28,351 nucleotides of DNA from a virus, in IMG/VR virus record IMGVR_UViG_3300045988_146736, positions 1-28,351 of that record; one strand, given 5' to 3'. Each line of letters starts with the position of its first letter. The stretch's first letter is position 1. Below the pieces are notes generated by a model. The model worked only from the letters and a program-made list of their open reading frames with translations, ran no database searches and was not told the DNA's origin. Shown here in pieces: positions 557-28,351 of this stretch. A program made the translations under genes and the position numbers.

Positions 557-1057
557 TCAGACGGCGCGGAGCTGGGGTGCTTCGGTTGTGCGGGGTGCGG
601 TGATTTCGGGAGGTGGGGCGGGGACGCCTGCGACGTCGTAGCCGCGTTGGCGGGCGGCGGCGTTGATCTGTGCGGGCGTCATGTCGGGGTGCGCGTCCAT
701 AGCGAACGCCTGGGCGGCGCGCAGCCATGTGACGTACTCGGACGGTGTCAGGTCGCCGTCGGGGTATAGCGGGCCGCCGTGTGACGGTGCGGAGACGAGG
801 GTGAGTCGGTTCGCGCGGTCGATCCGCTCGGCTTCGGTGGGTGTGCCCTTCAGGAAGTTCACGAGGTCGCCGAGGCGGACAAAGCCGGTGGTTTCGTCGA
901 GGACGTCGGCGGCGCGGGCGAGGTCGGCGTCTGTGGCGTCGGGAAACTTTCGGCTTATCTTTCCGCCCCACGTCTGTAGCTGGCCGGGCTTTGGGATGAG
1001 CACCCCGGCATCCTCGAGGTGTTCGAGGAAGGCTTGCATTCCACGTCCGGTAATCAT
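557..1057 (-). CDS. Hypothetical protein (166 aa)
   Basis: The ATG overlaps the upstream stop (ATGA at 1054..1057), which suggests translational coupling. The competing Arg-rich ORF 534..1073 is a high-GC alternative-frame artefact. Confidence 0.65.
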   Translation of the reverse strand: MITGRGMQAFLEHLEDAGVLIPKPGQLQTWGGKISRKFPDATDADLARAADVLDETTGFVRLGDLVNFLKGTPTEAERIDRANRLTLVSAPSHGGPLYPDGDLTPSEYVTWLRAAQAFAMDAHPDMTPAQINAAARQRGYDVAGVPAPPPEITAPRTTEAPQLRAV

Positions 1058-1923
1058 TCGCGGGTCCCTTCAATGGTGAGGATGGCTGCTTCGGTGGGCT
1101 GTGCGCCCCAGGCGGCGTCGATTTCGGCGGCCTTAGCGCGCTGTCGGGCGCGGAACTCTTCGGCGCGGGTGACGTGGGGGCGCGCGCCCCGCTCGGCCTG
1201 TAGCTTCAGGGTGTCCCACTTTTCGCGGAGCTTTGGGATGCTTAGGATGTTGGCTCGCCAGAACTCGGATCGATGTACCCAGTCGATTGCGGCGTGAATC
1301 TGTTCCTCGGTGCGCCCGTCGCGGTCGATCATGAGTCGGGCGGAATCGAGCCACTTCTTCGTGATACGGGGGCGGCGTCCGGTGCGTTCACAGACGGAGT
1401 TAGCCATGTGATAGCAAACTGACTCGACGTCGCGGCGAACGTTTGTTGGTTCGGGCGTGACTATGACCGAGTCGAGGACACTGTCGTCGTCGGTCGCGGT
1501 CGGTGTGGGGTCCGGCGCGGGCGCGGGCGCGGCGTCGGGTTCGGCGGCGTCCTGTGCGGCGCGGGCGCGTTGGCGTGCTTTGCGTTCGCGTGCGGCGGCT
1601 TTGCGGGCGTCGCTTTTCGCGGTGATGTCCCCCCATGTCCCGTTCCACCGTGTCCACGAGGTTACGGTGATTGTGGTCGCGGCGGCGGTGACGAGGCCGT
1701 GTGTGGTGAGGGCGTCGAGGCGGGCGGCGGCGTCGGTTAGGCCGAGGCGGCTTGTGGCGACCTCGACGGGGACAGCTCCGTCGGTTTCGGGGTGCAGGGC
1801 ACACCATGACAGGAGGCGGATGTAGAGAAGCTCGGCGTCTGGTCCGGCGGCGATGACGGCGGGGTCGTCGTAGTAGCCGCCTGCGAGGGCGGCGTATCTG
1901 CCGGGGCGCTTGAAGGGGGGCAT
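1054..1923 (-). CDS. Putative replication initiator / DnaD-like replisome organiser (289 aa)
   Basis: ORF 1054..1992 trimmed to the ATG at 1923 (GAAAGG upstream). The C-terminal segment ...ITKKWLDSARLMIDRDGRTEEQIHAAIDWVHRSEFWRANILSIPKLREKWDTLKLQ fits the DnaD-like / conserved phage C-terminal replication-protein pattern. An Ala/Pro/Asp linker sits in the middle. The gene lies next to the repeat array. Confidence 0.55.
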   Translation of the reverse strand: MPPFKRPGRYAALAGGYYDDPAVIAAGPDAELLYIRLLSWCALHPETDGAVPVEVATSRLGLTDAAARLDALTTHGLVTAAATTITVTSWTRWNGTWGDITAKSDARKAAARERKARQRARAAQDAAEPDAAPAPAPDPTPTATDDDSVLDSVIVTPEPTNVRRDVESVCYHMANSVCERTGRRPRITKKWLDSARLMIDRDGRTEEQIHAAIDWVHRSEFWRANILSIPKLREKWDTLKLQAERGARPHVTRAEEFRARQRAKAAEIDAAWGAQPTEAAILTIEGTRE

Positions 1924-1963
1924 TGCGTGTGCCTTTCGGTCGGGGCGGTGCGTCACTAGCCAT

Positions 1964-1992
1964 ATGCTAGCGGCTGGGGGGGGGCGCGTCAA
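1964..1992 (-). promoter_or_regulatory. Predicted promoter of the replication operon (TTGACG-17-TAGCAT)
   Basis: Minus strand: -35 TTGACG (1992..1987), 17-nt spacer, -10 TAGCAT (1969..1964, fits TANNNT). It sits 41 nt upstream of the ATG at 1923. The spacer contains a 9-nt C run (G run on the plus strand, 1976..1984). Confidence 0.45.
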
Positions 1993-2425: not shown

Positions 2426-2503
2426 TTGCATACGGCTATGCATAGGTGTATGCTGGGGTCATCGGGAGGAAAGGCCCCCCGATAGACCGAAAGGACCGAA
2501 GCC
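2426..2503 (+). promoter_or_regulatory. Early promoter-leader cassette, copy 1 (TTGCAT-17-TATGCT, 5' hairpin, conserved RBS block)
   Basis: -35 at 2426..2431 and -10 at 2449..2454. A hairpin at 2461..2483 begins about 7 nt after the -10. The AGACCGAAAGGACCGAA block lies directly before the ATG at 2504. Bases 2425..2457 are 33/33 identical to the reverse complement of 7331..7363. Confidence 0.7.
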
Positions 2504-2869
2504 ATGAACACCGAGACCGCGACCACGAACGAAACCATCCGCGACTACCTCGGCGACTTCGCCAATGAGTTCACCGAGGATCAAATCAGCATCATCACCG
2601 CCGCCGCTACAGACGTCGAGGAGCGCATCATCGCCAAGTACGGCGACATGACCCTCGAGGAGCGCGGCGTGATGATGCTGACGCCGCTCGAGGCTATCGT
2701 CGAGTACGTCAGTGATGAGACGACGCTCGCTAAGTGCGTCGGCGACGATGAGCGCCTGGAGGCCGCCCTGATCGCCGGTGCATACAGTGGCCGCCTCACG
2801 GAGCGCCTTGCCGAAGCCGCCGGGATCGACCTGGCCAAGGCGCAGGAGCTCCTCGGGGATCTTGCCTGA
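2504..2869 (+). CDS. Acidic protein of unknown function, paralog A (121 aa), possible C-terminal helix-turn-helix
   Basis: ATG with the conserved RBS block. By eye it aligns along its whole length with the product of 8723..9082 (MNTET..., ITxAAT..EER, YGxMT, RLExAxIAGxYxG, LAxxAGIxLAKAxxxLGxL). I count about 26 Asp/Glu against 9 Arg/Lys. Confidence 0.8.
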   Translation: MNTETATTNETIRDYLGDFANEFTEDQISIITAAATDVEERIIAKYGDMTLEERGVMMLTPLEAIVEYVSDETTLAKCVGDDERLEAALIAGAYSGRLTERLAEAAGIDLAKAQELLGDLA

Positions 2870-2877
2870 CTTACCCC

Positions 2878-2907
2878 GGAGGCCCCGTCCATCCCGGCGG
2901 GGCCTCC
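2878..2907 (+). promoter_or_regulatory. GC-rich hairpin after paralog A (possible attenuator or RNA-stabilising element)
   Basis: ggaggccccg (2878..2887) pairs with cggggcctcc (2898..2907): a 10-bp stem with a 10-nt loop and no U-tract. A hairpin occupies the same position after paralog B. Confidence 0.4.
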
Positions 2908-2930
2908 ACCTCGTGAAAGGATAATACACC

Positions 2931-3152
2931 ATGACCACCATCGAGCCCCCCGACTTCGCGTTCAACTTCAAGACCGGATATGCCCGCATTGGCTCCGAGA
3001 CCATCCGCCCAATCAATGGCATCACCCAGCAGACCAACGGCTTCGGGGCGCATTTCATCACACTGACTATCCCGGTTGCCCGCGTCATCATCGAGGACGA
3101 TCCGACCGGCCCCGTTAACCCGTCCGCCCCTAGCTTCACCGTGCGCCCCTGA
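2931..3152 (+). CDS. Hypothetical protein (73 aa)
   Basis: ATG preceded by GAAAGGA. Same strand as the rest of island 1. No recognisable motif. Confidence 0.55.
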   Translation: MTTIEPPDFAFNFKTGYARIGSETIRPINGITQQTNGFGAHFITLTIPVARVIIEDDPTGPVNPSAPSFTVRP

Positions 3153-3165
3153 AGGGACTAAGACA

Positions 3166-3888
3166 ATGACCGCTATTGACAAGATCATCGCGCAGATTCG
3201 CCAGCTCCTGAAAATTGCGTCCGACGGGGGCGCGAGTATCAACGAGCGCGAATTGGCGCAGCGTCGCGCCGAGCGTCTCATGGTGCGTTATCGCATCGAA
3301 ACACTGCCCGATAGTGACGCGCGCGCCCGCGACGAAGACATGACTACCATCACAGTTGAAATCAAGGGGAGCTCCGGGTCAATGGCGCGCGCAATCGTGG
3401 ACGGCCTCGCCACGCTCTCCCACGCTCTGAGTTGCTTCTGTTCGTGGCGCATGTACCGAAGCCACATCGTGGCTACCATCGTGGGCACCCGCTCGGACCT
3501 CGCATACGTCACGGAGTTCTACAACGCTGCCGTAGCGTCCTACCCGTCCATGTTGAAGGCCCGGCTGCGTCACGAAGACTTCTACAGTGAGTCGGAGCGC
3601 CGTCGTTTCCGGCGTTCCTACGTGATGGGCTATTTTGAGGGCATCGCCGAGCGTATCGAGATCGCTACCCGTGAGGAGACGACGTCGACGGGGCAGGAAC
3701 TTGTGCTTGCGTCCCGATACCAGCGGGCCGAGGCGAAGGCCCGCGAGGGGTGCAAAATACGCATGGCGCGTGACCTCATGATCGACCATAACGCGACGGT
3801 TGGCGGACAGCGCGACGGGTACGCCTCCGGCATTGGCTGGATGGGCGAGCGCCTTGACGGCCCGCGCGTCGGCATTGCCGCCTCCTGA
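3166..3888 (+). CDS. DUF2786-like protein (240 aa)
   Basis: ORF 3076..3888 trimmed to the ATG at 3166 (GAAGGGA upstream). The N-terminus IDKIIAQIRQLLKIASDGGASINERELAQRRAERLMVRYRIE matches my recollection of the DUF2786 pattern (KI.kLLalA...neNEAe.A...A..Lm.ky.I). Confidence 0.6.
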   Translation: MTAIDKIIAQIRQLLKIASDGGASINERELAQRRAERLMVRYRIETLPDSDARARDEDMTTITVEIKGSSGSMARAIVDGLATLSHALSCFCSWRMYRSHIVATIVGTRSDLAYVTEFYNAAVASYPSMLKARLRHEDFYSESERRRFRRSYVMGYFEGIAERIEIATREETTSTGQELVLASRYQRAEAKAREGCKIRMARDLMIDHNATVGGQRDGYASGIGWMGERLDGPRVGIAAS

Positions 3889-4381: not shown

Positions 4382-4421
4382 AGCGCCCCGCCTTCCTGTT
4401 TGTCAGGATCGGCGGGGCGCT
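4382..4421. terminator. Bidirectional terminator hairpin between island 1 and the recombination operon
   Basis: agcgccccgcc (4382..4392) pairs with ggcggggcgct (4411..4421): an 11-bp stem with an 18-nt loop, followed by tttgcgttt on the plus strand. It sits between convergent genes. Confidence 0.55.
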
Positions 4422-6914: not shown

Positions 6915-7283
6915 TCACTCGCTGTCGGCGAGCGCGGCGGCGATAGCCGTGTCAATGGCCGGGTAGGTCGGGCGCTCCTTACCCTCCCACTTGGAGCCCG
7001 CCCACACCTGCGCGGGCCAAAGGCGGCGGGGAAGGACGGCCTCGATGTCCGGCCACTCGCCCGGATCGTCGGATGAGAAGTAGACCTTCTCGCCGAGGAT
7101 GCGGTTCATGACGACGCGAACCTCGTCGTCAATGACGTCGATGTAGATTGCGAGGAGGTTGTCGCCGTCAACGCGGGCCGTGAGGTCTGCGCCGGGCGCG
7201 ATGATGCGCTTCCAGTCGCCGAGGGGCAGCTTGTTCAGGTCGATCCAGTTGAGTTGATCGGCGGAGGTAATGATCGGGTTCAT
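6915..7283 (-). CDS. Hypothetical protein (122 aa), first gene behind early cassette copy 3
   Basis: ORF 6915..7442 trimmed to the ATG at 7283. That ATG is preceded by the same AGACCGAAAGGACCGAAACC block seen upstream of 2504 and 8723. Confidence 0.7.
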   Translation of the reverse strand: MNPIITSADQLNWIDLNKLPLGDWKRIIAPGADLTARVDGDNLLAIYIDVIDDEVRVVMNRILGEKVYFSSDDPGEWPDIEAVLPRRLWPAQVWAGSKWEGKERPTYPAIDTAIAAALADSE

Positions 7284-7362
7284 GGTTTCGGTCCTTTCGG
7301 TCTTTGGGCGGGCGTTTCCCTCCCAATGATCCCAGCATACACCTATGCATAGCCGTATGCAA
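7284..7362 (-). promoter_or_regulatory. Early promoter-leader cassette, copy 3 (inverted relative to copies 1 and 2)
   Basis: Minus strand: -35 TTGCAT (7362..7357), 17-nt spacer, -10 TATGCT (7339..7334), hairpin 7326..7304, then AGACCGAAAGGACCGAAACC-ATG. Confidence 0.7.
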
Positions 7363-7534: not shown

Positions 7535-8545
7535 TTAAATGAGGAAGTCGAGCGGCGCGTCGATCCCCCGCCGGAACCGATCATGAATCAACGGGATATA
7601 GCGCTCGTCGAGCTCACACCCGACCGCGTTCACGCCCTCCATTGCGGCGGCCTGTAGGGTCGTCCCCGACCCGGCGAACGGCTCGAGGATCGTCGCGCCT
7701 GGCCTCACCACAAGCCGGATCAGGTAACGCATGAGATCGAGGGGCTTGACTGTCACGTGCTGCACCCCCCCCACCTTCGGGCGTTCGTGCGTCGGGGCCT
7801 TCGGCTGGTACTTGAAGCTCGGCCAGCTGTGATCGGGCGCGCCCTGTTCGACAGCCGCCGCGAGCGCGGCTTCGCTGACCATGAGGTTAGGCGGGTAGGA
7901 CCCGCCGACGGCGTCCATTGCTGACCGGATGTTCATTGCTCCGGTCCCGAAGGCGCTCACGTTGTCGACTAAGCTGCCCTCGAGTGGCTTTCGAGCCACT
8001 ACGATAGGCTCCCATGCTGGTTTTAGGCCGAGGCCCCAGCCGTCCCATGTCTTAGCCATGTCCGTAACCGGCTCGCCGGAGCTGTGTACCTTGTGGGTGG
8101 ACATATGCGTCGCTGTGTTGCCGCTGTCCCACTTTCTCACGTCGCGCCCCTCGCGCTCGTCGAGAACACCGGCTGCCCTGTCGAACATTGCAGAGAGATT
8201 TACCGCCGCCGGTTTCCTATCGGCGAATATCCATGAGAGTCCATCCCTGACTTCGAAGCCCGCATCCTCAATGCCAGCTGTGAGACGATGGTAGGTTCGC
8301 GGCGACGAAAACGCCAGCAGGTAGCCGCCGGGCTTGATGGTGCGCAGAGCTTCAACTGCCCATGATTCGGCCCATGATTGAAACCCGCGCGGCGTTGCGG
8401 TGTCCCACTTTTCGCCCATGAATGAAATTCCATACGGCGGGTCGGTAATGATCGCGTCGAAGTGATCGGCGGGCATTTCCCGCATGATGTCGCGGCAGTC
8501 GCCGTTGTGGAGGGTAATCCCCTCATAGATTGTTTGTCCGGTCAT
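7535..8545 (-). CDS. DNA methyltransferase, beta-class (N6_N4_Mtase family), probably N6-adenine (336 aa)
   Basis: ORF 7535..8617 trimmed to the ATG at 8545 (the upstream Met codons fall inside the promoter). Motif IV IITDPPYG is near the N-terminus and motif I ILEPFAGSGTT near the C-terminus. There is no adjacent restriction endonuclease. Confidence 0.85.
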   Translation of the reverse strand: MTGQTIYEGITLHNGDCRDIMREMPADHFDAIITDPPYGISFMGEKWDTATPRGFQSWAESWAVEALRTIKPGGYLLAFSSPRTYHRLTAGIEDAGFEVRDGLSWIFADRKPAAVNLSAMFDRAAGVLDEREGRDVRKWDSGNTATHMSTHKVHSSGEPVTDMAKTWDGWGLGLKPAWEPIVVARKPLEGSLVDNVSAFGTGAMNIRSAMDAVGGSYPPNLMVSEAALAAAVEQGAPDHSWPSFKYQPKAPTHERPKVGGVQHVTVKPLDLMRYLIRLVVRPGATILEPFAGSGTTLQAAAMEGVNAVGCELDERYIPLIHDRFRRGIDAPLDFLI

Positions 8546-8579
8546 GGTTGCTCGCTTTGGTAGGTGGCATTGCGTTTCG

Positions 8580-8608
8580 ATAGTAGGGCCATGCATCACT
8601 GTATGCAA
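8580..8608 (-). promoter_or_regulatory. Predicted methyltransferase promoter (TTGCAT-17-TACTAT)
   Basis: Minus strand: TTGCATACagtgATGCATggcccTACTAT. It shares the TTGCATAC-N4-ATGCAT layout with cassette copies 1 and 3, and lies back-to-back with cassette copy 2. Confidence 0.55.
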
Positions 8609-8645
8609 ATCTTCCATATGTGGCTACAGTCTCTTATATCCCTAC

Positions 8646-8722
8646 TTGCATAACGCTATCCACTAGGTGTATGCTGGGGGTATCCCCTGAAGGGCAGGGG
8701 ACAGACCGAAAGGACCGAAACC
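8646..8722 (+). promoter_or_regulatory. Early promoter-leader cassette, copy 2
   Basis: -35 TTGCAT at 8646..8651, 18-nt spacer, -10 TATGCT at 8670..8675. Hairpin tcccctg/cagggga at 8683..8701, then AGACCGAAAGGACCGAAACC-GTG. Confidence 0.65.
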
Positions 8723-9082
8723 GTGAACACCGAGACCGTTATCAAGATGGTTGGCGACTTCTTTGACCTCACCGCCGAGGACTTCACCCCCAAGCAGCTC
8801 GCCGTCATCACCGAAGCCGCGACCGAAATCGAGGAGCGCCTCGCTAGGTACGGCGAGATGACGACGTTCGAGAAGAACATCATGATGCACGGCGCTATGG
8901 GTGCCGTCGTTGACTACGCGAGCGGATGCACGCCCCTGGCCGAGTTCATCTACGATGACGCCCGCCTGGAGGGCGCGATGATCGCGGGCATCTACGCAGG
9001 CAAGACCACGGCCCAGCTCGCCAACGAAGCGGGCATCACGCTTGCCAAGGCGTCGCGCATCCTCGGCAGCCTTGACTTCTGA
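8723..9082 (+). CDS. Acidic protein of unknown function, paralog B (119 aa)
   Basis: GTG start in the conserved leader context. The first 15 coding nt after the start codon are identical to those of 2504..2869. The protein aligns with paralog A over its full length. Confidence 0.8.
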   Translation: MNTETVIKMVGDFFDLTAEDFTPKQLAVITEAATEIEERLARYGEMTTFEKNIMMHGAMGAVVDYASGCTPLAEFIYDDARLEGAMIAGIYAGKTTAQLANEAGITLAKASRILGSLDF

Positions 9083-9090
9083 CCTATCCC

Positions 9091-9114
9091 CGCCCCGCCC
9101 AACCGGGCGGGGCG
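9091..9114 (+). promoter_or_regulatory. GC-rich hairpin after paralog B
   Basis: cgccccgccc (9091..9100) pairs with gggcggggcg (9105..9114): a perfect 10-bp stem with a 4-nt loop, followed by TTAT. Confidence 0.45.
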
Positions 9115-9144
9115 TTATCACCCCAATCACGAAAGAAGACCGAA

Positions 9145-9489
9145 ATGACCGAAAACACCGAAGCCCACGACCGCGATGACCACGTGACCACGGCACTGCT
9201 GGCCGCCCTGATCGGCAAGACCGTACAAAGCGTTACCGTCACGCTCCCAGCCGACGCGCTGACCGGTGACTACCTTGCCCACCTCGTCGCCGACATGGAG
9301 CCCGCCGAGTACGAGGCGTTCGCCGCGACCCTTGACGAGCAGGTCGTCGCCAACGGCGCAACCAAGGCCGCCGCGCTCACCGATCCGCGCGAGGACCGCA
9401 CGCCACATTGGCGGGGCGCTATCTACATGATTGACCGCGACGGGGACGACGTCACCGTGAAGGTGCTGGTTTTCACCTGCCGGTGCTAA
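9145..9489 (+). CDS. Hypothetical acidic protein (114 aa)
   Basis: ATG preceded by GAAAGAAGACCGAA. Second and last gene of island 2. No recognisable motif. Confidence 0.6.
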   Translation: MTENTEAHDRDDHVTTALLAALIGKTVQSVTVTLPADALTGDYLAHLVADMEPAEYEAFAATLDEQVVANGATKAAALTDPREDRTPHWRGAIYMIDRDGDDVTVKVLVFTCRC

Positions 9490-9499
9490 GCGCGTAGAC

Positions 9500-9536
9500 C
9501 AAGGCCCCCACCTGGACGGTCCAGGTGGGGGCCTTG
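9500..9536. terminator. Bidirectional terminator hairpin between island 2 and the end of the late/lysis operon
   Basis: aaggcccccacctgg (9501..9515) pairs with ccaggtgggggcctt (9521..9535): a perfect 15-16-bp stem between convergent genes. There is no clear U-tract, which is common for actinobacterial terminators. Confidence 0.7.
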
Positions 9537-9561
9537 TGGCGAACTAACGAGAAGTACGCTG

Positions 9562-22624: not shown

Positions 22625-23395
22625 TCAGGTTGTTTGCGGGCGGTCTTTCACGCCGTCCGCGTATGCGCCGGGCGTTGACCGCCTGGCATGTCGCATGAGC
22701 ACGTTCAGGTCTGAGGGGTTTTCCCCGCTCATGATCGCCGCGCTTCGTGCCTCATTGTACAACGTTTCCAGGTGGTCAGGGTTATAACCGTCGATCTTGG
22801 GGTCTGTGTCCCCGAACGCGGGGACTATCTCGCAATCGCAATCGTGGTGAAAGCGGTTGCCGAGGCCGCCCGCCGTCTTTTTCGACGCGTACACCCAGCC
22901 GCGCGAGGCCAGCATGGTGCAAAACGCGCATGTTTTCGCGCCGCGCGGGACGCGTGCCCACCTCGGGTTAGCCGGATCGCGGCGGACGTTGCGGAGAACG
23001 GTGTCGCGGCCCGCGTCCTTGACCCACATTTGGAGCCCGCCCATGAGGTCGGACAGCATTTTTTCTTGCTGGTCAGACCACAGGTGCCCGGCGGATGCCC
23101 GGACGCTCGCTTCGACCTGAGCGGGGAGCGCCGACGGGGCCGGGGTAGCCCGGTACGCAGACCGGACGCCCGCCGCGTCGCGTTCGCTTTCGTACCATTC
23201 GGTAGCCGCGAGCGCGGCGACGTCGCCATATTGGGCGGCGAGGCGTGGGACGAAGTCGGCGAGCGCGTCACGGCACGCGGCGGGGTCGTCGAACGGCAGC
23301 GTATCCCAAAATGCGGTCAGGTCGGCGCGGGCCGCCTCGACCGCCTGGTCAACTGCCTTGGAGTATCGGGTGATGGAGCGGCGGGTGACCATCAC
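22625..23395 (-). CDS. MuF-like minor capsid / head morphogenesis protein (256 aa)
   Basis: ATGA overlap with the portal stop. The C-terminal Cys/His cluster CAFC...HHDCDC is typical of actinophage MuF-like proteins. Confidence 0.7.
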   Translation of the reverse strand: MMVTRRSITRYSKAVDQAVEAARADLTAFWDTLPFDDPAACRDALADFVPRLAAQYGDVAALAATEWYESERDAAGVRSAYRATPAPSALPAQVEASVRASAGHLWSDQQEKMLSDLMGGLQMWVKDAGRDTVLRNVRRDPANPRWARVPRGAKTCAFCTMLASRGWVYASKKTAGGLGNRFHHDCDCEIVPAFGDTDPKIDGYNPDHLETLYNEARSAAIMSGENPSDLNVLMRHARRSTPGAYADGVKDRPQTT

Positions 23396-24804
23396 GCCTC
23401 CCGCGTCGTGGCGAGCTTATCCAGGCGGTCAAGGATCGACGTCGCGCCGGTCCGACGGGTTTCGGCTTGCATCTGGTCGATCTCTTGCTGCGTGAACCCC
23501 GCGCGGCGCATGCCGACCGTCGTCGTGGCGACGTCGGGCATGGCTTGGGCGATCTTGACAATGAAGTCGGACGACGCCTGCGGGGACACGTAGCGCGCGG
23601 GCGTCCAATTGACGGCGAGTTTCCAGGATTCGTCGGGCGCGGTGACCGAGTGGTCACGAACCATGACGACGTCCTCAATGATGCGGCGGAGCGCGGGCGT
23701 GAAAACGCGCCACTGGTACTCCGCTTCGTCCGATAGGGCGTATTCGGCGGCCTGCATGGCCTCGGCGGACGCGGGGTTGTCCGCGAAGATGCCGACGGAC
23801 GACGTCGGCATGTTCGTAGCCGAGCACAGATTTTGCGCGAGCTGCCGGTACATCGATAGGTGCGGGTCCATCGACAGTTGCGAAAACTGACCGACGGAGG
23901 GAATGTCGCCGTTTTCGTTGGGTGACAGGGCGAGGATGCGCCCGGTGATCGCCGACCAACGGTCAACGCCCGCGAAGGCGTCCTCATCCGCGCCGAGCAC
24001 GTACCGCTGCGGGGATGAGAAGAACTCGGCGGACGCTTCGGTTCGGACCATCGTCCTAATTGCACAGTCGGTCAGGTATCGCACCTCGCGGCTGATGCGG
24101 GAGCGCCCGAAGGGGCGGCTGATCTGCGGATCATAGGTCAGCATTTCGATCAGGACACGCCCGGCGGGGTTGGGGAGGCGTTGCACCTGCCACGCGCCGC
24201 GCTTGCCACGCGTTAGGCGGATCGTTTCGCCTGGGAGGAACAGTGTCGCGTCTGACGGTTCGACGAGGCGCGTGATGGTGTCCATGTCCCACCCGTCGCC
24301 GTCGGGCGACGTCGCGCCGTTGATCGCCAGGCCAGCGGTGACGCATCGGCGGCGCGTGTCCCACTGGACGGACGTCCAGCGGGCGTCGCGGGCCTGGATG
24401 ACTACGGGCGGTTCACCCGCCGCCGTGTCGCCCGCGCCGACGACGAGGAAGGAGCAGGAGTGCTTGTAGGCGGATTGGATTGCCTGCATGAGTTCGACGT
24501 CAAACGAGTTCCTAACCAGGAGTTCAGTGACGTCGAACGGGTCGAGCCGCCCGTCGAGGGAATACCCCTCAAAGACGTGCTTGCGGGCAAGTGTGGACAC
24601 GGCCTTCGCGGGCCACCCGAGGGCGGCGCGGACGCGGGCCATTTGGGGCGGGACGCTGATCCCGAGGTCCTGGAAGACGCGGTGACCGTCGTAGTAGGCG
24701 TTCAGTAGTTCATTCTTTGCGGCCTTAGTTTCGATGCGCTTCCATAGCGCCGCGAAAATGGCCTGCTCCGCGCCGGTCAGGGCGGCGATCACGGGGGCGG
24801 GCAT
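23392..24804 (-). CDS. Portal protein (470 aa)
   Basis: ORF 23392..24909 trimmed to the ATG at 24804 (GGAAAGGGA upstream). Size and position match the portal slot after the terminase. The sequence is SPP1 gp6-like in character. Confidence 0.8.
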   Translation of the reverse strand: MPAPVIAALTGAEQAIFAALWKRIETKAAKNELLNAYYDGHRVFQDLGISVPPQMARVRAALGWPAKAVSTLARKHVFEGYSLDGRLDPFDVTELLVRNSFDVELMQAIQSAYKHSCSFLVVGAGDTAAGEPPVVIQARDARWTSVQWDTRRRCVTAGLAINGATSPDGDGWDMDTITRLVEPSDATLFLPGETIRLTRGKRGAWQVQRLPNPAGRVLIEMLTYDPQISRPFGRSRISREVRYLTDCAIRTMVRTEASAEFFSSPQRYVLGADEDAFAGVDRWSAITGRILALSPNENGDIPSVGQFSQLSMDPHLSMYRQLAQNLCSATNMPTSSVGIFADNPASAEAMQAAEYALSDEAEYQWRVFTPALRRIIEDVVMVRDHSVTAPDESWKLAVNWTPARYVSPQASSDFIVKIAQAMPDVATTTVGMRRAGFTQQEIDQMQAETRRTGATSILDRLDKLATTREA

Positions 24805-24893
24805 AGGTTCCCTTTCCGGTTGGTTGACTTTTGTCTCCAATGGTACACACCGCCGCGCTGTGATAGGGGATCGGCATATCACACCGCCCACAT

Positions 24894-24922
24894 TGGCATT
24901 ATGCATCACATGTGCATATAAT
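24894..24922 (+). promoter_or_regulatory. Predicted promoter of the HTH gene (TGGCAT-17-TATAAT)
   Basis: -35 at 24894..24899 and a consensus -10 TATAAT at 24917..24922, 29 nt before the ATG. The leader AGACCGttcagAAAGGACCGAc resembles the early-cassette RBS block. Confidence 0.6.
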
Positions 24923-24951
24923 GATGCAAAGACCGTTCAGAAAGGACCGAC

Positions 24952-25269
24952 ATGACCGACATCGCCGAGCGCCGCTCGGACCTGCTGATTTCACAGACTG
25001 ACTTCGGGCGGCTCGCCGCCGGGGTGAAACAGACATCCGTCTCACGTTGGGAGCGGGGTAAGCACATCGAGCAATCTGACATGTTGGACAATGTGCTTGA
25101 CTCCGCCGAAGCAAAGCGGCGCGCGCTGACACGCTTCATTCACAAGGACCGACCGCGCTTCGCGGTCACGGAGGCCGATTATCGGGAGCGTTTCCCGGAT
25201 TATTGCCCAATCATCCCCTATGCCCTGTATCGCATCATTCATAACGCGGTACACGACATGACTACATGA
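24952..25269 (+). CDS. Cro/CI (XRE)-type helix-turn-helix regulator (105 aa)
   Basis: Motif ISQTDFGRLAAGVKQTSVSRWERGKH is a classic HTH_3 pattern. It is the only plus-strand gene in the late region, and its 3' end overlaps the terminase stop tail-to-tail by 8 nt. Confidence 0.8.
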   Translation: MTDIAERRSDLLISQTDFGRLAAGVKQTSVSRWERGKHIEQSDMLDNVLDSAEAKRRALTRFIHKDRPRFAVTEADYRERFPDYCPIIPYALYRIIHNAVHDMTT

Positions 25270-26788
25270 CGACAACGCCGCCGCCGCGCCGCCCCTGAGC
25301 GTTCCCACCACGGAGCGCACGGGGGCGGCGTCGCGTTGTACGGGCGATCCAGTACGCCGCCGACGCCGCGTCGAGCGGGGACGGGTCGCCGTCTTCTACG
25401 GTGGCCGCCCATCCCCAGGCCCCGTCCTGACCGCGCAGGCGCTTGTCGCACGTGGCTACCGCGCGGTTCAGGAGGTCGTCACGTTCGCCCTTCGGGTGGG
25501 TCAGGTGCTTTTCACGCACCGCATCGAGGAACAGGGACGTTGCCCCGAAATACTCGCCGGTACTCATGATGTGGATCATGGGCTTTGGGACGCCGCGCTC
25601 ACGCAGCGCTTCGGCGAGGACACCCGACCCGGCGCGCCCGAGGATCGCAATCTCCGCGATCCGGTGACGCCGTTCGGCGATCCAATCGGCGAGCTGCGCG
25701 ACGCCGACGTCCGCGCGCCCTGAGTACGCGCCGATTAGTTCGACGTGACCGCCGTCCTCGGTCCTGACCGCGCCCGCGACGGCCTGGTGAAGCCCGTCCG
25801 CCGTGAAGGACACGCCAATCGTGCGCACGCCCTCCGACTCATCCGGCGGCGTCGTGGTCGCCGTTGCCGACCATTGGGCGGGCGTAATCAGGCGCTTTGC
25901 GCCCGCGTCCTGACGCCAGATTCCGAGCCGGTCCTGTGCGAACCGTTCGGGCGTGTAGGTCTCGTATTCGCCTTGCACGACCTCGTGGTTAATTAGGCTG
26001 TTCCACGACGGGTTAGCCTGCCACCTGGTCAGCTCCGACGCCGGGTCGAAGTCGGCGGCGTCAGGGTCCGCGCCCCATTCGACCCACGCCGACGCCGTGG
26101 ACTTCCCCGACATGGCCGCCTTCCTGACCATGTCGAAGGTGTAGCAATCGTCCTCATCCTGTGGGGGCGTGCCGAGGAGCCACACCTGCGGGTTGGCGCG
26201 CGCGGATATCGTTGAGTTGATCGACGTCCACGCCCGGGACCCAAGGATCTGTGCCTCATCGAGGAGGAGGCAATCTGAGCTGAAACCCTTGCCGCCCGCG
26301 CCGGAGCGGGCCTTGAACTTGATCTTCGCGCCATTCTTGAACTTGACGGACTCGCGTCCAAAGGCGTTCATGACGCCGTTTTTTGCCAGGCGGTCACGGA
26401 GCCCCTGGTTTTCGTCGGCTTCGACGATCTCTAGGAGCTTTTCGAAGGTTTCGCGGGCCGTGTCTTGCTGATGGGCGGACACGACGATGAGGCGCTCCCC
26501 GAAAATCAATGCGCCCGCGAGCGCCCGCGCGACGAGGAGCTGGCTCTTGCCGTTCTGACGGGGCACGGACACGCCGACGCGCTTTGCCGCCCACGTGCCG
26601 TTTGCCTGTTCGCCCATCGCGGCGTCCAACACGAGCTCCTGCCACGGTAGGAGCGTGACGCCCAACATCGCGGACAGGTCGGCGACGTCTTCCCAGCCGT
26701 TAGACCGCTCGCCCTCGGGGCGGACGAGGACGCGCGGCGGGGCCTCCCCTAGCAGCGCGACGTCGGGCGAGTTCGTCGAACGGGTCAA
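25262..26788 (-). CDS. terL: Terminase large subunit (508 aa)
   Basis: Walker A-like VSVPRQNGKSQL, LLLDEAQ (Walker B), and a C-terminal nuclease-type region. The TTG start at 26788 is preceded by AGAAGGA. Confidence 0.85.
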   Translation of the reverse strand: MTRSTNSPDVALLGEAPPRVLVRPEGERSNGWEDVADLSAMLGVTLLPWQELVLDAAMGEQANGTWAAKRVGVSVPRQNGKSQLLVARALAGALIFGERLIVVSAHQQDTARETFEKLLEIVEADENQGLRDRLAKNGVMNAFGRESVKFKNGAKIKFKARSGAGGKGFSSDCLLLDEAQILGSRAWTSINSTISARANPQVWLLGTPPQDEDDCYTFDMVRKAAMSGKSTASAWVEWGADPDAADFDPASELTRWQANPSWNSLINHEVVQGEYETYTPERFAQDRLGIWRQDAGAKRLITPAQWSATATTTPPDESEGVRTIGVSFTADGLHQAVAGAVRTEDGGHVELIGAYSGRADVGVAQLADWIAERRHRIAEIAILGRAGSGVLAEALRERGVPKPMIHIMSTGEYFGATSLFLDAVREKHLTHPKGERDDLLNRAVATCDKRLRGQDGAWGWAATVEDGDPSPLDAASAAYWIARTTRRRPRALRGGNAQGRRGGGVVVM

Positions 26789-27188
26789 TTGCTGATTCCT
26801 TCTTACTGGCTTGTTCGGTCAGGGCGTTCAGCTCGGCTAGCGTGGCCCGGAATTGGCTTGCTAGCGGGCCTCGGCGGTCCGGTGGGGCGTCCTCGATGGA
26901 TGCCTTCAGGACCCCCGCTAGCCATTCTAATTCTTGCTGACGATTTTGGGGGAGGCTCACACGCCACTCGGAATGTGCCTCGATCACCTCGGGGCTGTCA
27001 TCGACCGGGCGCTCGGCTTGGTACTTCAGACGGCGGACGCGGTTCACCTCGTCGCGGTGTTTTTTCATGTACCGCCTGTTTTTCGCGTGGTCGCGACAGG
27101 TCTGTGAGCAATAGGTTTTCTTGCGTCCGCGCGCGGGCTGATCGAGCTCGGCTCCGCACTCGCGGCAGTGCGTCGGGGTGGGGGCCAT
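26700..27188 (-). CDS. terS: Putative terminase small subunit with N-terminal zinc ribbon (162 aa)
   Basis: CRECG...CSQTC zinc-ribbon-like N-terminus, a basic region, and a position immediately upstream of terL. GAAAGG RBS. Confidence 0.55.
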   Translation of the reverse strand: MAPTPTHCRECGAELDQPARGRKKTYCSQTCRDHAKNRRYMKKHRDEVNRVRRLKYQAERPVDDSPEVIEAHSEWRVSLPQNRQQELEWLAGVLKASIEDAPPDRRGPLASQFRATLAELNALTEQASKKESAIDPFDELARRRAARGGPAARPRPPRGRAV

Positions 27189-28058: not shown

Positions 28059-28351
28059 TTAGTCGCGGGTGGGGAGGTTGCGTGATGCGCGGGCGATGTC
28101 CGCGAAGGCGCGCATCGGGTCATAGTTTCGGTACTCATCGATGATACGCTGCCGTTCGGCGTCGGTGTCGATGGTGTACTCGATGCGGAGCCCGACGTGG
28201 TGCGCGTCAACGTACTCGACGGCGGTCGGTTCAATGCTGATTGCTTCGGCGTCATCGGGTAGCTTGCGGAGGGCTTTGGCGATGTCGCGGAGCTTCACTG
28301 GCTTGTCGGACGCCCAGGTGATTGTCAGGATGCGCGTGTTTCGCGTGTTCA
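28059..28351 (-). CDS. Hypothetical protein, gene split by the linearisation point (97 aa when wrapped; start codon is 33,32,31)
   Basis: The frame of ORF 28059..28298 stays open to the window end. Bases 28350..28351 (equal to 31..32) plus base 33 form an ATG with GAAAGG (47..42) 8 nt upstream and an ATGA overlap with the stop of gene 30..233. The GTG at 28298 has no RBS. Confidence 0.65.
   Translation of the reverse strand, partial: NTRNTRILTITWASDKPVKLRDIAKALRKLPDDAEAISIEPTAVEYVDAHHVGLRIEYTIDTDAERQRIIDEYRNYDPMRAFADIARASRNLPTRD
28320..28351. repeat. Terminal direct repeat, copy 2
   Basis: Identical to 1..32. Confidence 0.9.

Follow-up and report, generated by a model that had tools for sequence, protein, structure and literature searches.

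Why does a gene for a small putative regulator lie on the plus strand exactly between the genes for the large terminase (terL) and the portal protein, in a structural operon that otherwise runs uninterrupted on the minus strand? We addressed this question in the IMG/VR virus record IMGVR_UViG_3300045988_146736, whose whole analysed stretch of 28,351 bases is called the window below. Its relative, Actinomyces phage LC001 (ON920540; host Schaalia odontolytica XH001), is 92% identical across 89% of the window and has been described as a lytic siphovirus with clear plaques (PMC11032452). The gene in question encodes a 105-aa protein with a predicted Cro/C1-type helix-turn-helix (HTH) domain and, together with its own promoter and a hairpin behind its stop codon, appears to be a self-contained antisense transcription unit specific to LC001-like lytic siphophages of oral Schaalia/Actinomyces. 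We propose, with a probability of roughly 50%, that this unit is an early gene transcribed by the host polymerase, and that its product is a Cro-like repressor that would bind the palindrome TGCAT-N6-ATGCA and thereby damp the early promoters and its own synthesis.

The HTH gene and the palindrome of the early promoters

The gene occurs in two allele groups: group A comprises the window, LC001 and five others (87–96% identity), and group B comprises at least eight loci that are ~50% identical to group A. The elements that bear directly on the proposal are the following, where P_HTH denotes the promoter of the HTH gene and P1 to P4 denote the early promoters.

24952..25269, plus strand: HTH coding sequence, 105 aa, with a predicted Cro/C1-type HTH at about residues 4–40 and an orphan helical C-terminal domain at about residues 43–104.
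24893..24922, plus strand: P_HTH, a sigma-70/sigmaA-type promoter composed of TTGGCA (24893–24898), an 18-nt spacer and TATAAT (24917–24922), with a predicted start at about 24929.
24913..24928, both strands: candidate operator TGCAT-ATAATG-ATGCA, a perfect palindrome over the –10 element and +1 of P_HTH.
24901..24906: half-site ATGCAT in the P_HTH spacer, 11 bp upstream of the left arm of the candidate operator, conserved in all group A loci.
24940..24950, plus strand: Shine-Dalgarno block GAAAGGACCGA, common to three early-cassette leaders.
2426..2454, plus strand: P1, TTGCAT-17-TATGCT, with a perfect palindrome at 2427–2442 and an overlapping one-mismatch site at 2439–2454.
7334..7362, minus strand: P2, of the same architecture as P1, with palindromes at 7346–7361 (perfect) and 7334–7349 (one mismatch); it drives the recombination genes (exonuclease, ERF and RusA).
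8580..8608, minus strand: P3, TTGCAT-17-TACTAT, upstream of the DNA methyltransferase gene, with a perfect palindrome at 8592–8607.
8646..8675, plus strand: P4, TTGCAT-18-TATGCT, with a one-mismatch palindrome at 8647–8662.

An earlier note, a first reading made from the letters alone, had called a 105-aa plus-strand gene at this position and assigned its product to the Cro/C1 type; the gene call held up, and the assignment is likely. The open reading frame (ORF) of 105 codons was unbroken in all 15 related loci, and the ratio of nonsynonymous to synonymous substitution rates (dN/dS), computed inside each allele group, was 0.15–0.5. This comparison indicates a real protein-coding gene under purifying selection in both alleles. 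Minus-strand ORFs were also considered as the true gene and were rejected: they differ in length from one relative to the next, but the plus-strand ORF has 105 codons at every locus.

The Pfam HTH_3 score of the window protein was 17.2 bits, which is below the cutoff of 23 (E = 0.005), yet HTH_3 was matched by 10 of the 14 family members (best E = 1e-4). The closest match of solved structure was the N-terminal domain of the P22 C2 repressor (E = 0.02), to which hhalign aligned 35 columns covering helices 1–3 with a probability of 86%. Membership of the protein in the HTH_3 superfamily is likely on the basis of these profile matches. The putative recognition-helix residues (Q27, V30, S31, R32, W33, E34 and R35) are invariant across both alleles. 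When 1.84 billion representative proteins were searched exhaustively with a profile, full-length relatives were confined to the LC001 clade; profile matches outside it covered the N-terminal 40–60 residues alone, in proteins rich in HTH_3 domains. Word-based protein searches found no full-length relatives beyond this clade, and a family-profile search found no relatives of the C-terminal half (about residues 43–105) outside it. The C-terminal domain is conserved and predicted to be helical in a low-confidence model: the AlphaFold2 model, built from a 14-sequence alignment, was poor (mean predicted local distance difference test score (pLDDT) of 61, and <50 for residues 1–41), with predicted helices at residues 4–11, 15–23 and 32–36, and a Foldseek comparison of this model with the PDB gave no match.

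We found no match to a Peptidase_S24 domain, as would mark a CI/LexA-like lysogenic repressor, in the 105-aa protein. Scans of nearly all predicted genes against Pfam and PHROGs detected no integrase, ParA/ParB or second HTH gene, in agreement with the description in the earlier note of this gene as the only repressor-like one in a genome with no integrase. In other words, the HTH protein is the sole recognisable DNA-binding regulator in the genome, and the hallmarks of a temperate immunity module (an integrase or partition system, and occurrence in prophages) were not found. An Rfam scan of positions 24600–25500 returned no known RNA family.

The promoter of the gene matches the consensus at 11 of 12 positions. 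In a consensus scan it was the best promoter in the genome and unique in the 14–28 kb region, and the single other match in the genome scored 9/12; the hexamer TATAAT itself occurs twice in the whole genome. The earlier note had correctly singled out this promoter as the strongest, but its reading of TGGCAT with a 17-nt spacer was one base off, the correct register being TTGGCA-18-TATAAT. The –10 element is invariant in 15 of 15 related loci, and the –35 element reads TTGGCG or TTGAGC in relatives. Downstream of the promoter, the exact 11-mer GAAAGGACCGA is confined to positions 2489, 7288 (minus strand), 8708 and 24940, and with up to one mismatch it has 7 matches compared with 0.75 expected. 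The kinship of this leader with the ribosome-binding site (RBS) block of the early cassettes, already suspected from the first reading, is therefore exact at three early leaders. The group B leader differs and carries AGGAGG.

The early cassettes share a further element with the HTH gene. Self-comparison of the window revealed three repeated cassettes, in each of which a TTGCAT-17/18-TATGCT promoter is combined with a conserved leader. The palindrome TGCAT-N6-ATGCA is perfect at four sites in the genome (2427, 7346, 8592 and 24913), compared with ~0.01 expected from an estimate based on base composition, and one-mismatch copies lie at 2439, 7334 and 8647. With up to one mismatch allowed, there were thus 7 matches compared with 0.45 expected, and none of 100 shuffled sequences reached 7. 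All four perfect copies sit in promoters, three of them early and the fourth P_HTH. At the early promoters the palindrome spans the –35 element and spacer, and P1 and P2 have a second, overlapping site that reaches the –10 element. The hexamer ATGCAT likewise has four occurrences in the genome, each in a promoter region. That the HTH gene and the early promoters have this palindrome in common is a new observation of this analysis.

The variation of the palindrome among relatives is also informative. Its arms are conserved, but the six bases at the centre change freely; for example, the centre at P3 reads AGCACG, ACCGTG, AACGCA, AGCGCG or ACAGTG between conserved flanks. Fixed arms around a free centre, with half-site centres spaced by one helical turn, are what one would expect if a dimeric HTH protein used the palindrome as its operator. 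The palindrome is found at P_HTH in both alleles, being perfect there in most group B loci, and at no fewer than one early promoter in group B genomes.

These observations are consistent with the following sequence of events. Host RNA polymerase would transcribe the HTH gene right after infection, and the protein would then bind, probably in dimeric or higher oligomeric form, to the 16-bp palindrome, whose half-site centres are 11 bp apart. Binding over the –35 element and spacer, and at P1 and P2 also at the second site up to the –10 element, would shut the early promoters, and binding over the –10 element and +1 of P_HTH would limit the synthesis of the protein itself. Two features favour such a role: the protein is the sole candidate for a DNA-binding regulator, and its gene has the RBS block of the early cassettes. 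Because LC001 is lytic with clear plaques (PMC11032452) and no homologue was found in 185,579 bacterial genomes, a Cro-like shut-off of early genes is a more likely function than that of a CI-like lysogenic repressor.

Several points, however, weigh against this proposal. We infer from sequence that the protein binds the palindrome, and in which direction and when it would act; several early proteins of unassigned function could be the binder instead. The HTH match of the window protein falls under the Pfam threshold, and the structural model is poor in the HTH region itself and has no structural matches. Of the 7 group A loci, 6 carry an imperfect palindrome at P_HTH, with a single mismatch (TGCCT or TGCTT), and the left arm of the early sites overlaps the –35 hexamer TTGCAT, so that promoter function alone could explain part of the conservation. 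The two alleles are just ~50% identical although the putative operator is the same. In six group B genomes, a second class of early promoter (TTGC[AG]T-TAAAT...AGGTG[CT]G-TATACT) occurs at 2–3 cassettes without the palindrome, and the predicted regulon is accordingly dependent on lineage. Finally, the hairpin behind the gene lacks a U-tract, which makes its activity as a terminator uncertain.

The class of early promoter tracks the HTH allele, but this covariation amounts to one split between lineages, and the P_HTH palindrome is common to both alleles; it neither supports nor refutes binding of the protein to the palindrome. A search with the exonuclease gene, aimed at the early regions of outgroups, returned only close relatives.

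Some further observations concern the early promoters and P_HTH. The 16-mer CACATGTGCATATAAT (24907–24922) is common to P_HTH of the window and group B, and the other members of group A have C[A/G]CGTGTGC[C/T]TATAAT in its place, a pattern that points either to local recombination of the two alleles or to selection that favours an operator without mismatches. The genes that come first after the early promoters, at 2504–2869 (plus), 8723–9082 (plus) and 6915–7283 (minus), encode small acidic proteins, two of which are paralogues with 48% identity. They had no match in Pfam, PHROGs or PADLOC and could have anti-defence or host-takeover functions. When regions 2808–3847 and 7910–9247 were compared, ~2.4 kb of the window proved to be absent from LC001; the missing sequence takes in P3 and P4, the greater part of the DNA methyltransferase gene and a large portion of a DUF2786 gene. 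LC001 retains just two palindromic cassette promoters.

Insertion between terL and portal

The genes on either side of the unit, and a third gene that bears on packaging, are as follows.

23392..24804, minus strand: portal gene (phrog_104, E = 2e-107), now parted from terL by the insert; its real start is the ATG at 24804, preceded by the RBS GGAAAGGGA.
25262..26788, minus strand: terL, large terminase gene (phrog_9, E = 7e-61), whose 3′ end overlaps the HTH gene by 8 nt.
26700-27188: small-terminase candidate, which overlaps the start of terL.

A portal-based scan of IMG/VR returned 80 loci, in which the presence of the gene followed relatedness sharply. The antisense 105-codon gene lies between terL and portal in every locus that reaches the junction and has a portal at least 93% identical to that of the window, and it is absent at the junction in every locus whose portal is 55–68% identical. 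Whether related phages carry a gene at this position, as the earlier note had asked, is thus answered differently for the LC001 clade and for its more distant relatives. In 9 of 11 distant relatives that were closely examined, the terL stop codon overlaps the portal start codon (ATGA/GTGA). Such an overlap is a classic sign of translational coupling. Because the distant relatives have this overlap, the unit of ~455 bp is an insertion specific to the LC001 clade, in whose ancestor it split a coupled terL/portal pair. The suspicion of the first reading that the gene had been inserted into the late operon is thereby supported by comparative genomics. A family-profile scan of IMG/VR found the gene in 12 contigs, all of the LC001 clade and always at the terL/portal junction, and the corresponding scan of 185,579 representative bacterial genomes found no true homologue, only generic HTH proteins.

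The two alleles differ within sharp boundaries. Nucleotide identity drops from 85–90% in the flanks to 42–68% exactly from the portal start to the terL stop, and the flanking TerL and portal proteins are 94–96% identical between allele groups. This divergence hotspot between conserved flanks is useful for studying the gain of promoter–gene–terminator units and the tolerance of late operons to them. In addition, a 3.3-kb contig of an NCBI metagenome-assembled genome (GCA_017879105.1, contig JAFJNK010000074.1) has the same portal–HTH–terL region with many frameshifts and appears to be either a low-quality assembly or a decayed copy. The 103-aa protein called on it was rejected as an artefact, in which promoter DNA is fused to the HTH domain.

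Morons of lambdoid and HK97-like phages consist of their own promoter, a gene and a terminator placed between late genes (Juhala/Hendrix), and the anatomy of the unit described here resembles this plan, with a predicted promoter matching the consensus at 11 of 12 positions, one gene, and a conserved GC hairpin after the stop codon, albeit without a U-tract. Its restriction to one clade, and its absence at the same junction in relatives, are also typical. It might therefore be a moron-type accessory gene with an external target, acting on host genes, in superinfection exclusion or cross-immunity, or in counter-defence, in which case the palindromes would be bound by another factor. The low identity of the module relative to its flanks would be expected in an arms race, and the C-terminal domain is an orphan. 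Nevertheless, the rare palindrome of the early promoters recurs at the promoter of this gene and so links it to the regulon of the phage itself, and the matches in PADLOC were weak, at the level of the HTH to RmrA. Moreover, the phage is lytic (PMC11032452) and no prophage copies were found, which would leave a conversion or immunity gene without a lysogen to act in. We consider this explanation unlikely.

The position beside terL also raises the idea of a packaging accessory, that is, a small-terminase-like HTH protein or one that binds cos or pac. Small terminases often consist of an N-terminal HTH followed by a helical oligomerisation domain, a plan that resembles that of the 105-aa protein. 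The gene is, however, on the opposite strand and behind a promoter of early type; a conventional small-terminase candidate (26700–27188) and an HNH endonuclease are already present; and the relatives package their DNA without the HTH gene. A packaging role is extremely improbable.

The hairpin and transcription across the junction

Transcription of the unit would run toward terL, and transcription of terL toward portal would run across the unit. Two secondary elements and the gap upstream of portal bear on how these are reconciled.

25270..25342: GC-rich hairpin with a conserved core at 25282–25335, beginning 1 nt past the HTH stop codon, within the last ~27 codons of terL; a candidate terminator for the plus strand.
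24855..24887: inverted repeat GCGCTGTGATA / TATCACACCGC, with the core TGTGATA-N11-TATCACA; of doubtful function.

The hairpin is markedly more stable than expected (z = –4.8), and none of 200 shuffled sequences folded equally well. Twenty-two of its pairs are kept across alleles A and B; there are several one-sided changes that preserve pairing and no double compensatory changes. We compared the minimum free energy of the last 90 nt of terL, which was –47 to –59 kcal/mol in 12 loci bearing the HTH gene, compared with –15 to –28 kcal/mol in 10 relatives without it. The hairpin thus co-occurs with the HTH gene. The other two convergent junctions of the window (4384–4420 and 9496–9540) likewise have long GC hairpins, one of them with a perfect 18-bp stem, and the hairpin at 9496–9540 also has no U-tract. 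Every convergent junction of the phage seems to be marked by a GC hairpin.

On the plus strand, the hairpin would serve as the terminator of the HTH transcript, probably ending an mRNA of ~410 nt at a point ~75 nt into terL antisense. On the minus strand, it lies within the translated tail of terL, where ribosomes could prevent its folding and so allow late read-through to portal. The earlier note had seen no convincing terminator and had expected the transcript to run far into terL. The first statement did not hold up, because a stable hairpin and candidate terminator lies directly behind the stop codon, conserved in both alleles and absent where the gene is absent, and the second is unlikely in view of the same structure. 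The 8-nt tail-to-tail overlap of the HTH gene with terL (25262..25269) is confirmed for the window and group A, but the stop codons abut in group B.

What the unit does to the transcription of portal is a separate matter from what its protein binds. According to one explanation, which the earlier note had raised, firing of P_HTH against the late minus-strand transcript, or pairing of its ~410-nt antisense RNA with the read-through RNA from terL to portal, would restrain expression of portal and the other structural genes for as long as P_HTH is active, and the protein would mainly be the off-switch. The arrangement invites this view: the unit occupies the very junction of terL and portal, antisense to both genes, it broke an ancestral translational coupling, and no other promoter in the genome matches the consensus as well as its own. 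In the 147-bp gap upstream of portal we found no canonical minus-strand promoter, so that portal probably needs read-through across the antisense gene, and any such read-through from terL meets the unit head-on. In addition, the position is strictly kept in the clade despite divergence to ~50%. On the other hand, the conserved hairpin directly after the stop codon restricts antisense transcription into terL, purifying selection acts on the coding sequence of either allele, which suggests that the protein itself matters, and the 8-nt overlap is not conserved. The site may simply be a permissive insertion point. We regard interference as distinctly unlikely to be the function of the unit; if true, it would represent a compact way of timing late genes.

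A variant combines interference with repression by the protein. Early firing of P_HTH and the hairpin would block read-through into portal, and the accumulating protein would then repress P_HTH and the early promoters and lift the block. Such a timer would need no late promoter, sigma factor or antiterminator, and the hairpin, melted by translation of the terL tail, would act as a one-way terminator. This elaboration is very improbable in our estimation.

The earlier note had proposed the inverted repeat upstream of the –35 element as an autoregulatory site. The repeat exists and can be extended to 10 of 11 pairs over 24855..24887, but the proposed role did not withstand comparison. When the intergenic region was subjected to dinucleotide shuffling, 13.7% of the shuffled sequences contained a perfect 7-bp arm and 1.75% contained the 10/11 version. 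Among group A relatives with nearly the same protein, 4 of 7 have TGCGATA or CGCGATA as the left arm; no equivalent was found in group B, and the genome shows no enrichment of the half-site at other positions. We accordingly rejected the repeat as an operator because it is near chance level, not conserved, and not repeated elsewhere in the genome. Another rejected candidate is a mirror-image minus-strand promoter inside P_HTH (TTGCAT at 24929–24924 and CATAAT at 24903–24898, with a 20-nt spacer), which has poor spacing and whose –10 element is lost in LC001 (CATAAC).

The leader of portal shows an additional pattern. A block, GTGTACCAT..GAG.CAAAAG.CAACCAA.CGGAAAG (24805–24850, minus strand), is kept between alleles A and B, and the neighbouring sequence is not. 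It holds a –10-like hexamer, TACCAT, without a –35 element, and may be a portal promoter or an mRNA leader element. The portal-leader motif GTGTGTACCATTGG had no occurrence above chance elsewhere in the genome.

These features allow the suggestion that the protein is a regulator of late genes, which binds an allele-specific region upstream of its own –35 element (24855–24887 in group A) and from there activates or represses a divergent portal promoter lacking a –35 element (TACCAT, 24845–24840). The layout, with the regulator on one side and the regulated operon on the other, would suit such control. The block ending in CGGAAAG is shared by the alleles and the stretch between it and P_HTH is allele-specific, the centre of the repeat would lie near –38 of this promoter, and the 10/11 repeat is found in just 1.75% of shuffles. 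However, the left arm varies among nearly identical group A proteins, group B has no comparable repeat, and neither a –35 element nor an extended –10 element is present. The two alleles have identical base-contacting residues in the recognition helix, which is at odds with allele-specific sites, and the mirror-image promoter TTGCAT...CATAAT of the window is lost in LC001. We therefore consider control of a divergent portal promoter to be highly doubtful.

Known systems and the source phage

The Cro-like early repressor that we favour has evident counterparts among P22 C2, 434 and lambda Cro. The best sequence and profile match of the protein is the N-terminal domain of P22 C2, and the candidate sites, including that at its own promoter, overlap promoter hexamers as in these systems. 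The 434 operator is ACAA-N6-TTGT. The candidate operator described here has the same geometry: its 16 bp comprise two 5-bp palindromic arms and, between them, 6 bp that are not conserved. There are also differences: the 105-aa protein is larger than Cro, lacks an S24 peptidase domain and has a helical C-terminal domain that is unrelated; its gene is antisense inside a packaging and structural operon and not in any immunity or early region; and the phage is lytic without an integrase, with operator binding that is predicted.

The comparison with morons is similarly divided. The likeness lies in the autonomous promoter–gene–hairpin unit exactly at a late-operon junction in one clade only. Classical morons are expressed from the prophage and benefit the lysogen, whereas no lysogeny is evident here. 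Furthermore, unlike that of morons, the payload appears to be wired into the early regulon of the phage through the palindrome and RBS block, and the hairpin lies within the coding tail of terL and lacks a U-tract.

Convergent promoters form interference switches at pR/pL of coliphage 186 and at enterococcal prgQ/prgX. As in these systems, a strong promoter opposes a long operon, and the transcripts are predicted to overlap by ~400 nt. Here, however, only the plus-strand promoter is predicted, promoter prediction having identified no late minus-strand promoter opposing P_HTH, and the hairpin limits the overlap to ~410 nt. In 186 and prgQ/prgX, both promoters serve a decision on lysis and lysogeny or on conjugation, whereas the present site is the terL/portal junction. 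In the Streptomyces phage phiC31, one repressor recognises a conserved inverted repeat at several early promoters. The phage described here is also actinobacterial, with an inverted repeat recurring at early promoters; phiC31, by contrast, is temperate with its repressor gene in the early region, and the likeness noted here is one of layout. Taken together, these comparisons suggest that the protein is probably an ordinary small phage regulator of the XRE type, and what stands out is the unusual position of its gene and the accompanying hairpin inside the terL tail.

LC001 is a model lytic phage of S. odontolytica XH001, the host of the Saccharibacteria episymbiont TM7x. The present analysis provides a first regulatory map for its clade, comprising five promoters, the 16-bp palindrome that they share, one candidate regulator and a hairpin at each convergent junction. 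It also provides a clean, dated case of the entry of a regulatory gene into a translationally coupled terL/portal junction, with a hairpin evolved in the coding tail of terL.

The GenBank record of LC001 has no annotation. The window is a circular assembly with a G+C content of 65%: self-comparison found bases 1–32 again at 28320–28351, and this terminal repeat of 32 bp shows that the window is a complete, circularly assembled genome of ~28,319 bp. The minus strand carries nearly all genes, in the order replication initiator, single-stranded DNA-binding protein (SSB), HNH endonuclease, small-terminase candidate, terL and portal, followed by head maturation protease (MuF-like), scaffold, capsid, connectors, tail genes and lysis genes. 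The replication-initiator gene (1054–1992, minus strand) adjoins about 10 iteron-like repeats ATGTCAC[G/A]CG at 2078–2360, partly in units of 17–34 nt, and the array is therefore probably the origin of replication. Two pyrimidine-rich direct repeats lie beside the array at 2043–2079.

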